Assembly (NCBI GenBank): GCA_964016885.1
Contig: CAXHJY010001363.1
Coordinates: 66,289 to 130,288 of the forward strand
Reading direction: 5' to 3'
DNA from: Eledone cirrhosa
Taxonomy: Eukaryota
DNA length: 64,000 nucleotides
Shown here piece after piece: positions 2,484 to 61,725 of the stretch. How positions within the stretch are numbered: the first letter of the stretch is position 1; each line of letters opens with the position of its first letter. A program made the position numbers and the translations under genes. The notes under the pieces are model-generated. The model was given only the letters and a program-made list of their open reading frames with translations. It was not told where the DNA came from and made no database searches.

Positions 2484-2685
2484 AACAAAGGAATTGTGGT
2501 AAGGAACCAGATGGACCATAACGCACCAGAGTACTCAATACTTAGGGTAGTAGAGTGGGAAATAGGAAAAAGTATGATCCCCGACAGCAGAGCTCAAGCC
2601 GTTTCGACGGCTATTTCTGGTCCAGAGTCCAGAAATAGCCGTCGAAACGGCTTGAGCTCTGTCGTCGGGGTCTTACTTTTTCCTA
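2484..2685. mobile_element. Fold-back Penelope-like terminal fragment in (TA)n with hammerhead 3' half
   Basis: Inverted arms 2563-2620 / 2629-2685; GAAAC-GGC...GTCGTC-GGGGTC; same family at 52393-52588. Confidence 0.7.
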
Positions 2686-2704
2686 TATATATATATATAT
2701 ATAT

Positions 2705-3270
2705 CTGAGGAAGGGCTTATGCCCGAAACGTCGTTCCCCACCAACACCCCACTCTCCAGAGCGTGAAATTAATAAACATTCGTTGTACTGCCTCTCTGTT
2801 TTGTTCCTGTTCAAATTTTTCCATTATATATAATACACGCTCACACGGCTTCCATTCCTTGGAACATAACTTAACTAGCGGCTCAACCCCGATCTAATCC
2901 GCCGTGACCTTTCTCCGAACTTTACGCACCTTCCCACACTTGGTCTTTCCTTCCACGCATTACCTCTGTTTGATTTTGTTACTGTACTTGTTTATTTCCG
3001 TATATGATTCTTTGATTTAAATTTATTTCATTCCTTGTATTTTGATCATGCTTTATTTTTATTTTTATTTTTAATTTCATTCGCACCGTTTCCTTTCGCT
3101 ATATGTCTCTCCACCACTCCCCTACACACCCTTTGAACTCTGTTCCCACACACTTCTCACCTGAGGAAGGGCTTATTCCCGAAACGTCGCTCGCTCCCCA
3201 CCAACACCCCACTCTCCAGAGCGTGAAATTAATAAACATTCGTTTTGTTCCTGTTCAAATTTTTCCATTA
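2705..3270 (+). mobile_element. Penelope-like pseudo-LTR fragment with two direct hammerhead-core repeats
   Basis: ctgaggaagggcttat(g/t)cccgaaacgtcg plus a ~100-nt tail with AATAAA occurs at 2705-2825 and again at 3161-3270; third copy at 12138-12441. Confidence 0.7.
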
Positions 3271-3274
3271 TATA

Positions 3275-3546
3275 TGGAAAAGAATGAAATGAAATTTCAT
3301 TTCTCACTCTTAGTACGGATGATACCTAAATATAAGTATGTATACGTACATAAATATATGTGTACATCGTCGATGGTTGCCGAGCACTGTACGGCATAAT
3401 TCGGGCTGTTTGTTTACAAACAAACCGAGCATTATAATACATGTTCGGTAAACCCATAGGTACATATATATATGTGTGCATGTATGTATATATATACATA
3501 CTACTGTGCCTCTGTACACATATATGTATATACGTATACATACTTA
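3275..3546. mobile_element. Fold-back fragment of the 40817-41212 hammerhead family
   Basis: 3275-3366 is the reverse complement of the family tail; 3371-3546 is the forward internal segment. Confidence 0.7.
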
Positions 3547-3564
3547 TATATATATATATATATA

Positions 3565-56833: not shown

Positions 56834-57495
56834 GATCATCACCATCATCATCCGGTGACCTCAGCCGAAATCGACTCAACAATTGATCTCCACGTGGGTC
56901 TGTCGTTCATTGCCATTGCCAAGTCCTGGATTTCAATACCAGAATCTCTAGAGCTGACATCGGGTTAGGATTGCTTGCGCCCCCTGCTATTAGTGACTGC
57001 TTGTGGTTTCCAAAACACAAATGGGGACACAGCCTCATAGTTGACACGATGGCAATGGCCAGCAAATCTTACTCTCCTTTTACGTACAACGACAGATATG
57101 TGTGGGAGGCCAGCCTATATTTCTTTCAAAGTCAGATGTCGCCAGCTTATGTTCTGAATGTGTTAAAGCAGGCGAGTGTAGGTGCCATCAAGGTGCTTTT
57201 GTTGTTTGGATGAAAGCATCCATGTTTCACTTCCATATAGCAAGATTGGTTGAATTGTTACTTGGAAGAGTCTGATCTTGGTGTGGTTGGAAAGATTTGA
57301 GCGCCAAACTCAATCCATTTTGTTGCAAGCTGACCATGCATGGGCCTTTCTGGTGGTGAAATCCTTTTCAGAGTCCATGATCCAAGCTACTTGAAATCCT
57401 CGACTGCCGTTTATTGCTTTGATGCTGTTGCCTGTACAGTTTGATATGTATTCTGTTTTACCCTGCTCATTTAATGGCTGACCTGTGGCTAAACA
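56834..57495 (-). mobile_element. 3' end of RTE-clade LINE, decayed
   Basis: Minus-strand MDSEKDFTTRKAHAWSACNKMD, IQPILLYGSETW and DLAMAMNDRPTWRSIV, followed by a (GAT)n tail. Confidence 0.85.
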
Positions 57496-57507
57496 ATAAC
57501 AAATAAA

Positions 57508-58072
57508 ATAATTGTTTCTACTTTTGGCACAAGGCCAACAATTACCCAATACATTACTGGTACTTTATTTTATCGACCCCGTATGGATGAAAGGCAAAGT
57601 TAACCTCGACGGGATTTGAACTCAGACCGTAAAGGGACGTACCTATGCTGGAAAGCATGGCGTCCAACCCTCTACCGAAACTGCCAATTCACCGCCCTTA
57701 ACATATAAAATAATTGTTTCTACTTTTGGCACAAGGCCAGCAATTATCCCAGTGCATTACTGGTACTTTACTTTATCAACCCCGTAAGGATGAAAGGCAA
57801 AGTTAACCTCGGCGGGATTTGAACTCAGATCATAAAGGGAGGTAAATCTATGCTTCAAAGCATGGTGTCCGACGCTCTATATAAAATAATTGTTTCTACA
57901 TTTGGCACAAGGCCAGCAATTACCCAGTGTATTACTGGTACTTTATTTTATCGACCCCGTAAGGATGAAAGGCAAAGTTAACCTCGGCGGGATTTGAACT
58001 CAGAATGGAAAGGGCCGTAACTCTTTGCGTCAAAGCATGGCGTCCGACTCTCTACCGATACTGCCAATCCAC
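57508..58072 (-). mobile_element. Three head-to-tail SINE family A copies
   Basis: Three consecutive consensus matches. Confidence 0.9.
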
Positions 58073-61005
58073 AAAATAATGTTTGCAAATACATAGTGGA
58101 AGAGTCATTTCAAAGATGCATTAGTCGTGGGGGAGTCGTATGGTTGCCGTATTTACATACTACGTTTCTGGGACATTTTTTTATTAAAACATGGTGTATC
58201 CCATCTCCTCTCCAGGTCCGAATACAGCGGAATTTTTCCAGAGAAGGCTAAGAGAGAGTGAGAGAATGGAAGTGAGAAAGAGATATAGAGGAAGAATCGA
58301 CCCCAGTACTAGACTGGTACTTTTTCTTATCGAACTCGAATAACTGAAAGGCAAAGTTGACCTCTGTGGAATTAGAACTCATAGAGAAGAGAGCCAAAAC
58401 GAATACCGGAAAGCTTTCTATCTAACGTTCTTACGACTCAGCCAATTCTCCGCCATATTTTAAACATACAAAACCATCAAAACTAAAAGTGGATATAACC
58501 TCTCTCTCTCTCTCTCTCTCTCTCTCACTCACTCTCTCTCTCTCTCTCTCTCTATCTATCTATCTATCTATCTATCTATCTCTTTCTCTGTGCAGACGCG
58601 TTTTATTTATTTATCCCATTGCTAAAATGACTCTTCCGTGATGTAATTGTTCTAATTTTAAGAGATGATTTCAAATAAACCAAGTACATCTCAGAAATAT
58701 AAGTGTAGGCAATTTAATTGTCATGTAAGTTGAATCTGGGATTTTTCTTTTTCTTCTTTAATACACTTAGTTGGCTTCCAGAACTTTCTTAATGTTGCAT
58801 TGATGACCAGCCTAGGGCAAACTCTCTCTCTCTCTCTCTCTCTCTCTCTCTCTCTCTCTCTCTCTCTCTCTCTTATATATATATATATGTGTGTGTGTGT
58901 GTCCCAAAAAATGTATTCACACTTCAGCAGCGTTCTAAATATTGCCTAATATATATATATATATATTGTATTGTATGTTTGTATGTATGTATGTGTATGT
59001 GTAACAGGGTGTCCCAAAAATGTATTCACACTTCAACATCATTCTAATAAATATTGCCTGTATATATAAATATATATATATACATATAATATATATATAT
59101 ACATATATATATATACATATATTATATACATATATATAATATATATATATATATACATATATATTGTATGTATTTATGTATGTGTATGTGTATACAATGA
59201 GTCCAAAAAAATGTATTCACACTTCAACGGCATTCTAATAAATATATACATATACATATACATATATACATATATTATAGATATATATATATATATATAT
59301 ACATATATATAGATATATATATACATATATACATATATATATATATACATATATATAGATATATAGATATACATATACATATATACATATATATATATAT
59401 ATACATATATATATATATATATACATATATATATATACATATATATATATATACATATATATATATATATATATATATATATATATATATATATATATAT
59501 AATATACATATATATAGATATATATATATACATATATATAGATATATATATATTACATATATACATATATACATATATACATATATATATATATACATAT
59601 ATACATATATATATATATATATATATATATATATATATATATACATATATATTATATATATATACATATATATATATATATATATATATATATACATATA
59701 TATATACATATATACATATATATATAAATATATACATATATATATACATATATATATATATATATATACATATATACATATATATATACATATATATATA
59801 CATATATATATACATATATATATATATACATATATATATATATACATATATATATATGTATACACATATATATATATATATATATACATATATATATATA
59901 TACACATATATATATATATACATATATATATATATACACATATATATATATATATATATACATATATATAATACATATATACATATATATATATACATAT
60001 ATAACATATATATATATACATATATATATACATATATACATATATACATATATATATATATACATATATACATATATATATATATATATATACATATTAT
60101 ATATATATATACATATATATATATATATATATATATATATATATATACATATATATATACATATATACATATATAATATATATATACATATATATATATA
60201 TATATATATACATATAATATATATATATATATATATATATATATACATATATATATATACATATATACATATATATATACATATATACATATATATATAC
60301 ATATATACATATATATATACATATATATATATATATATATACATATATACATATATATATACATATATATATACATATATATATACATATATATATATAT
60401 ACATATATATAAATACATATATATATATGTATACACACATATATATATATATATATATATATATACATATATTATATATATATACACATATATATATATA
60501 TATACATATATATATATATACACATATATATATATATATAAATATACATATATATATATACATATATACATATATATATATACATATATACATATATATA
60601 TATACATATATATATACATATATACATATATACATATATATAATTATATATATATACATATATATATATACACATATATATATATATATATATATATATA
60701 ATACATATATATATATACATATATACATATACATAATTATATATATATATACATATATATGCATATATATATATATATATACATATATATATATATATTT
60801 ATATACAAATATATATATATATACATATATATATATACACATATATATATATACATATATATAGATATATATATACATATAAATATATACATATATATTA
60901 TATACATATATATATATATACATATATATATATATATATATATATATATATATACATATATATTATATATATATATACACATATATATATATATATATAT
61001 ATATA

Positions 61006-61725
61006 AGAATTAAAATACTAGAGTGTGTTGGAGTTAAGCACCCTCTTCATATTATAGAAATGACAGTAAAGATATAGCTCAATGTAATTAAACAGAGCCG
61101 AAGAATTATGAAAATAAACAAAGAAGCCTTCAATACATCAAAAAGTCCTTTATTAGCCAACAATGTTTCGTCCTATTAAGGACTCATCAGGGCAAGTAAA
61201 GCTATAAGAAGCACTATCGCCAATACAAGCCAAAAACTCAGAAGAATATGGAGTATACATACATTAAAGGCATAGGAAAATTATCAAGTAAAAATTGCTA
61301 AGAAGTGAATAACATTTTGAACCCATATTACAAATATAGTACAATGCAAAATTACAGTACGATATATAATATAAATATAATATAATATAATTGATAATGA
61401 TAATAATAATAATATTAAAGGCCCAATATACATATATATATATATACATATGTATATATATATATATATATATATATATATATCAATACACATATCCATC
61501 AATACAAACACAAACTAACACTTATTAAGAGTTTAAATATAAATATAATACATATATTATTTACAGTATAAAATATACTCCATATTCTTCTGAGTCTTTG
61601 GCTTGTATTGGCCGATAGTGCTTCTTATAGCTTTACTTGCCCTGATGAGTCCTTAATAGGATGAAACATTGTTGGCTAATAAAGACTTTTGATGTATTGA
61701 AGGCTTCTTGGTTTATTTTCATAAT
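61006..61725. mobile_element. Fold-back Penelope-like fragment with a hammerhead in each arm
   Basis: Arms 61105-61257 / 61574-61725; GCC-CUGAUGA-GUCCU-UAAU-AGGA(C/U)-GAAA-CAUU-GUU-GGC at 61156-61193 (-) and 61639-61676 (+). Confidence 0.8.

Follow-up and report, generated by a model that had tools for sequence, protein, structure and literature searches.

Inverted-arm inserts in a (TA)n-rich window

We analysed a 64,000-nucleotide stretch of Eledone cirrhosa DNA (GCA_964016885.1, contig CAXHJY010001363.1, positions 66,289 to 130,288; hereafter the window), which lies on a small contig of a 3.0-Gb genome, is rich in (TA)n arrays and carries 13 inserts with inverted arms, including truncated copies of Penelope-like elements (PLEs). 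An earlier note on this DNA had proposed that these 13 sites share one insertion grammar, and self-alignment detected an inverted arm at all of them. The paired stretch was 40 to ~290 nt long at 12 sites and 18 nt at position 16294, where a truncated tail arm faces a long tail-less arm, which accounts for the small overlap. At each site, the outer end of one arm enters (TA)n and its partner extends into an unpaired tail of 33–111 nt. No long element open reading frame (ORF) was present in the window.

The inserts fall into 11 families (A to K), for which strands are given as the RNA sense of the tail arm. The family A insert at 2485–2683 (minus strand), a Hydra-type PLE, comprises a tail (2485–2561), an internal ATA (2562–2564) and inverted arms to 2683, with a predicted bulged hairpin (2533–2556, minus strand, by pattern match) 8 nt 3′ of the internal start in RNA sense. 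A second family A insert in the opposite orientation (52395–52586, plus) has the same two starts and a hairpin at 52515–52538. The family F insert (61006–61723, minus), also a Hydra-type PLE, has a tail at 61006–61104, arms at 61105–61257 and 61574–61725, and a hairpin at 61077–61098. Hammerhead-like motifs were matched in its tail arm (61135–61206, minus, E 0.034) and its tail-less arm (61626–61696, plus, E 0.024), both to Rfam HH9 under the gathering score. Two family B inserts (26422–26764, minus, tail 26422–26484, internal TATA; and 50665–50911, minus) have identical internal starts. The observation that copies of one family break at the same internal site held for both pairs (2685 and 52393 in A, 26767 and 50915 in B).

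The remaining inserts represent one family each. On the minus strand are those of family J (3275–3545, tail 3275–3326, paired arms of 40 nt), family C (5748–5900, tail to ~5810, hairpin at the internal start), family G (11468–12042, tail 11468–11578), family K (16294–16579, tail 16294–16374, tail-less arm ~190 nt), family E (37472–37697, a 33-nt tail, a 7-nt TA match at the internal start and no strict-pattern hairpin) and family H (37721–37955, tail to 37803, hairpin present). Families I (6004–6228, tail 6158–6228, the sole copy found) and D (18952–19149, tail 19064–19149) are on the plus strand. The tail arm of the family G insert is broken by a 51-nt foreign piece.

Several other copies in the window lie outside this set. 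Solo arms without an inverted partner were found for families C, K and J at 12627–12768, 19609–19880 and 40817–41210, and copies of a further PLE family, each consisting of one arm and bearing a compact minimal hammerhead motif, at 2705–2830, 3161–3270 and 12140–12440; one of these forms a partial tandem that includes a host or ORF fragment. At 62031–63625, about four tandem copies of a 310-nt unit lead into an inverted stretch, with TA-rich arrays at the flanks; this is a tandem-plus-inversion insert of what is probably a non-coding PLE derivative.

Assignment to Hydra-type Penelope-like elements

The Penelope link drawn in the earlier note holds: the inserts are 5′-truncated Penelope-like retroelements, and arms of families A and F lead into reverse transcriptase (RT)/GIY-YIG frames, with a YRDD core and a C-terminal YIG in natural copies. 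Support from Pfam was weak, with GIY-YIG detected in one piece (E 0.004) and no RVT_1 match for A or F pieces. The RWR motif occurs in A and F, DKT in F and NKT in one decayed A copy; the CxCx5C linker, along with CxxC and CxH around E/N, is present in A, which lacks CCHH, and the linker is also present in F. A homologue search returned 794 proteins at E 1e-30 or better, and among the 95 listed homologues of at least 660 amino acids, RW[K/R] and DKT were each found in 89, the CxCx5C linker in 93, CxxC in 94 and CxH in 93. Craig et al. 2021 describe RW[K/R], DKT, CxCx5C, CxxC and CxH without CCHH, together with (TA)n targets, for the Hydra clade in the text of their study (PMC8557442). Insertion preference for (TA)n was evident across our families, and inserts combined a partial tandem of pseudo-long terminal repeats (pLTRs) with an inverted 5′-truncated copy and a tail at one end. 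We accordingly assign A and F to the Hydra clade, a membership that rests on motifs. A Nematis label was dropped for Hydra, and Naiad/Chlamys was rejected, as an N-terminal GIY-YIG would be expected there, but the endonuclease is C-terminal in A and F.

Similar frames lie next to one locus each of families H and K, and no ORF link was found for families B, C, D, E, I and J. Families G and J are non-coding tandem units. Candidate hammerhead-like motifs were noted in four families: F matched Rfam HH9 at E 0.001–0.03, below the gathering score, and motifs in A, G and K were identified by eye, with a non-canonical core in A. The A motif (L239:3400-3800, L237) has a long stem II, with U3-A8 in one copy and C3-A8 in others, and the 5′ ends of truncated family A copies concentrate where stem II finishes. 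Family G (L197/L199, L220/L221) forms head-to-tail, retrozyme-like units of ~480 nt with a canonical-looking hammerhead.

Inverted arms and TA flanks would also be features of miniature inverted-repeat transposable element (MITE)-like DNA transposons bounded by fixed terminal inverted repeats and a duplicated TA target, and 24 of 83 resolved A inserts share one centre, mostly from a search biased to that centre. However, arms ranging from 18 nt to >1.4 kb, varied centres, a tail on one side and the RT/GIY-YIG frames into which arms lead contradict such fixed termini. This reading is refuted for A and F, and for the inserts as a whole we consider it extremely improbable.

Two fixed starts and one tail per insert

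Copies were gathered genome-wide by tail-only searches, used instead of whole-hairpin searches (which are biased towards one structure), and from 1.08 Mb of arbitrarily chosen blocks. The family H tail search returned no copies and is uninformative. When many copies per family were tabulated, as had been suggested, starts adjoining (TA)n formed two clusters per family. In family A, 218 of 239 such starts, a set that includes similarity-chosen loci and some overlap, lie on exactly two positions 77 nt apart; 53 family A matches were found in 680 kb of random sequence. Tail lengths were mostly 44–162 nt in clusters from a family-blind scan. The claim that the full arm runs to the element end was not borne out, since the tail stops at a position inside the element and not at its natural end.

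The present analysis adds that a tail-start arm is paired with an internal-start arm. The two starts were joined in 126 of 131 inverted pairs, with three tail-tail and two internal-internal pairs. This count is anchor-based and de-duplicated, with 10 more pairs containing an inner array set aside; selecting loci by their tails ensures one tail start, not the type of its partner. A second, BLAST-based method on the window and random blocks gave 46 one-of-each pairs out of 47. In that count, 24 of 49 apparently solo tail arms were artefacts of the C and J internal-start probes and were recounted with anchors.

Target match at the start sites

The family-blind scan compared array bases that also match the element at the internal start with random joins in the same sequences. 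Complexity filters were applied to keep out degenerate TA sequence, and the filtered scan was repeated on 200 kb taken after the filters were fixed. Internal starts matched (TA)n by at least 3 nt in 15 of 19 blind families from all non-window blocks (2.2 expected), in 11 of 17 clusters in the filtered scan including the window (1.9 expected) and in 7 of 9 clusters in the fresh 200 kb subset (1.1 expected). Endpoints are therefore not random with respect to TA, so that neither outcome named in the earlier note as refuting its claim, random endpoints or arms that behave as fixed terminal inverted repeats, was observed. As a control, none of nine 5′-truncation ends abutting (TA)n showed a match of at least 3 nt, in a small sample with a null of 12%.

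Tail starts match (TA)n in most families seen, F being the exception. Read-through pLTR-ORF junctions, which show the sequence beyond the tail, carry ATA in 17 of 17 family A cases (16 of 20 loci, all selected for resembling a single junction). One D copy, one K copy and several J copies have ATA or longer beyond the tail; G has TA there, and its tail starts use three successive TA registers (10, 12 and 2 of 24). TA is insufficient to choose the site, because family A has eight sites with a TA match of at least 3 nt yet uses two, the other six almost never, and because the F tail start reads ACA. The proposal of twin priming guided by TA microhomology is to that extent modified: TA alone does not pick the site.

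Fixed ends at TA could also arise if symmetric inserts were trimmed later by slippage or deletion between the internal TA and the array beside it. The borders of arrays are prone to change, and the AT-rich ends of families C, D and H do show several registers. Many tail-tail or tail-less pairs would then be expected, however, against the 5 seen among 131, and neither the near-absence of ends at the six other matching A sites nor the truncation ends without TA match fits such trimming, which we regard as highly improbable.

A hairpin-forming motif 3′ of many starts

A bulged hairpin is predicted 6–9 nt 3′ of many start sites. Its strict pattern (in RNA sense, RCUC-stem-loop-stem-UH-GAGY) was derived from families carrying it and matched 10 of 17 curated sites, compared with 0.06 expected from shuffles and 0.2% in random genome, a count that is partly circular because the pattern was drawn from the same families. 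Families A, F, D and K carry it at both sites, whereas H and C carry it at the internal site. Among the 10 sites, six have G-C and four have A-U as the outer pair, and the closing pair of the inner stem, which the pattern leaves unconstrained, is Watson-Crick in all 10 (6 C-G, 4 U-A; by eye). Predicted folding is weak, at about -4 to -7 kcal/mol for nine sites (RNAfold). Rfam microRNA matches, below threshold, were rejected as hairpin artefacts.

Independent support for the motif comes from hairpin pairs in five metagenome Hydra-type loci (L309, L310, L311, L315 and L323), where the two copies stand 59–67 nt apart, either before the ORF or at the close of the pLTR. Of the copies in the L323 family, 13 stop ~8 nt short of the first hairpin and 5 stop 10 nt short of the second, with no TA match at the second position. 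By eye, three of the six Hydra consensus sequences published by Craig et al. also show the motif, Hydra-1_Ajap twice, and a fourth shows a variant of it.

Independent truncation of the two arms

Arm reach was resolvable in 112 of 180 inserts, references being too short for the other 68. In 66 of these the tail-less arm had the greater upstream reach and in 18 the tail arm did, while the two were equal in 28; 24 of the 66 are one recurrent junction, mostly from the biased whole-hairpin search. With hits from that search removed, family A had a further-reaching tail-less arm in 24 of 58 inserts, a further-reaching tail arm in 12 and equal reach in 22, and 49 of these 58 junctions were distinct. 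At three loci (L235, L236, L243) arms extend kilobases into the ORF from either start, and in L236 the tail-less arm outreaches the tail arm by 1.5 kb. Since either arm may be longer, which twin priming would fit, the tail-less arm is not simply a partial duplicate: the arm is inverted, as the earlier note had it, but it is often the longer of the two (~190 nt at 16294).

These lengths bear on the self-priming model of Arkhipova et al. 2013 for head-to-head junctions (PMC3846280), in which a strand folds back to copy itself and the copy, halting at an internal TA, anneals to the target. Within single family A inserts, the two arms do share subfamily alleles (6% mismatch compared with 46% when shuffled, n = 91), with agreement also in K and H, a non-significant result in F and uninformative ones in D and G. 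Some junctions lie at short natural palindromes, and the 28 inserts with equal reach would likewise suit self-priming. A copy made by folding back can neither extend past its template nor gain a tail absent from it, and synthesis on an RNA template is therefore required for both arms; self-priming is contradicted wherever the tail-less arm is longer, as in 24 of 58 A inserts and by 1.5 kb in L236. We find it very unlikely as a general account, and possible for a minority of inserts. The shared alleles fit a single source RNA, and conversion within hairpins could add to the agreement between arms.

Probable twin priming from both target strands

The interpretation offered in the earlier note is supported with two amendments. 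The inserts are head-to-head, 5′-truncated PLE insertions in (TA)n with outer ends at two fixed element positions, and we consider it probable that they are made by twin priming from both nicked target strands. We infer the steps of binding, nicking, pairing and joining as follows. An RT/GIY-YIG protein, probably dimeric, would bind each hairpin and nick both strands of the self-complementary (TA)n, whereupon each 3′ end would pair by 2–7 nt with the UA-rich patch preceding one hairpin. Two cDNAs would then converge, each ending independently of the other, before being joined head to head, and the tail would be the RNA between the two hairpin-set start sites. A more specific form, which we advance tentatively and with slightly more doubt than confidence, is that Hydra PLE RNA carries two positioning hairpins, each offering a UA template 6–9 nt upstream in the manner of telomerase RNA; a dimer would load one hairpin per subunit and prime both (TA)n strands by pairing, so that tail length would reflect hairpin spacing and the inverted repeat would be an obligate product.

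Fixed ends on TA and strict asymmetry could instead be explained by a TA-preferring endonuclease that also cuts the DNA copy of the element at two sites, with no pairing of primer and RNA. Craig et al. ascribe the tail to endonuclease-mediated resolution in the text of their study (PMC8557442), and the Penelope endonuclease has been reported to need the tail for recognition. However, the F tail start offers no TA step in DNA yet its RNA could still pair by way of a wobble, truncation is independent in the two arms, as expected of two cDNAs, and in vitro RT starts coincide with tail ends in the experiments described by Frangieh et al. 2024 (PMC11167929). We consider endonuclease resolution unlikely, though the most serious of the alternatives.

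Several observations weigh against twin priming at hairpin-set, TA-matched starts. An inverted arm is present at all 13 sites, but many copies genome-wide are single arms without an inverted partner. The F tail start reads ACA in 18 of 18 junctions, a 1-nt match (3 nt with one dT-rG wobble), its internal start matches TA by 2 nt, and the tail start of a Hydra-type metagenome family (L323) lacks a TA match when set against one read-through copy. The strict hairpin is missing from seven of the 17 curated sites (in B, E, G, I and J), and RNAfold predicts it as the minimum-energy fold at only some of nine sites. Five of 91 A inserts are discordant between arms at two or more variable columns. Initiation in the in vitro system, as the text of that study describes it, is at a site not homologous to the cut DNA (PMC11167929). 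Finally, no empty allele was seen, the overlapping contig C1247 carrying the same three inserts; 8 of 197 flank pairs matched in a search for paralogous empty sites, none informative on the pre-insertion state, and target-site duplications are unreadable within (TA)n.

Other features of the window and its surroundings

A very abundant SINE-like repeat with an AT-rich tail (9043–9330, 10868–11067, 36240–36600, 57480–58080 and many more) is often in tandem and often split by (TA)n and PLE inserts. The window also contains a 3′ fragment of an L1/Tx1-like LINE with a TTA tail at its end (12800–13800) and a 55-nt satellite of 65 copies that are 96% identical (44138–47693). A single-copy frame of 243 codons (23915–24646) is probably the last exon of a host membrane-protein gene, with a likely upstream exon near 22135–22210. 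On C1247 (L155-L156, C1247:55126-59396), two long non-Hydra PLE RT frames of ~2 kb each form an inverted pair.

Comparison with known systems

The layout of an inverted truncated copy with a one-sided tail is already known and ordinary for Penelope-like elements. An inverted 5′ part also results from twin priming of L1, where primings start from the two target strands, the second at variable upstream sites, and the parts do not overlap. Unlike in L1, both starts are fixed here, at a distance of 33–160 nt, and one RNA region serves as template for both copies.

With the Hydra clade, as characterized in the text of PMC8557442, the present elements have in common the C-terminal GIY-YIG, the motifs, (TA)n targets, pLTRs and an inverted 5′-truncated copy with a tail at one end, while tails are mostly 44–162 nt here compared with 30–40 nt there. 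TA-matched starts and the repeated hairpin are not described in its main or supplement text. In Pen2a_Av and relatives from Adineta, the text of PMC3846280 reports head-to-head pLTRs with an optional tail on one of them, as here; these were explained by self-priming, whereas our arm-reach data favour two independent cDNAs. Families G and J resemble the non-LTR retrozymes of bioRxiv 10.64898/2026.07.22.740005 in being short non-coding tandem units, hammerhead-like in G (by eye), and two-start, TA-matched ends have no mention in the text consulted from that preprint. In literature searches of open-access papers, we found no earlier description of a target match at both PLE starts, of two independent cDNAs or of a repeated PLE hairpin.

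The closest parallel is the Anolis Poseidon element PAc in vitro, for which the text of Frangieh et al. 2024 (PMC11167929) reports that both strands are nicked and extended, that two internal RT start sites bound the tail, which is the RNA between them, that RNA 3′ of the starts is required and that a dimer is predicted. The PAc start is described as non-homologous to the target, with no strand difference in start use, whereas in the present families most starts match the target and every paired insert typically combines the two kinds. The text of Craig et al. names the origin of PLE inverted repeats, one-sided tails and microsatellite-biased insertion as open (PMC8557442). The two start sites, their target match and the hairpin behind each are concrete, mutable features, which turn this open question into a simple in vitro test. 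Such inserts are abundant and easily mis-annotated as MITEs or microRNA hairpins. If the proposal is true, a primer-template match set by a hairpin would tighten the link between these RTs and telomerase, their sister group.

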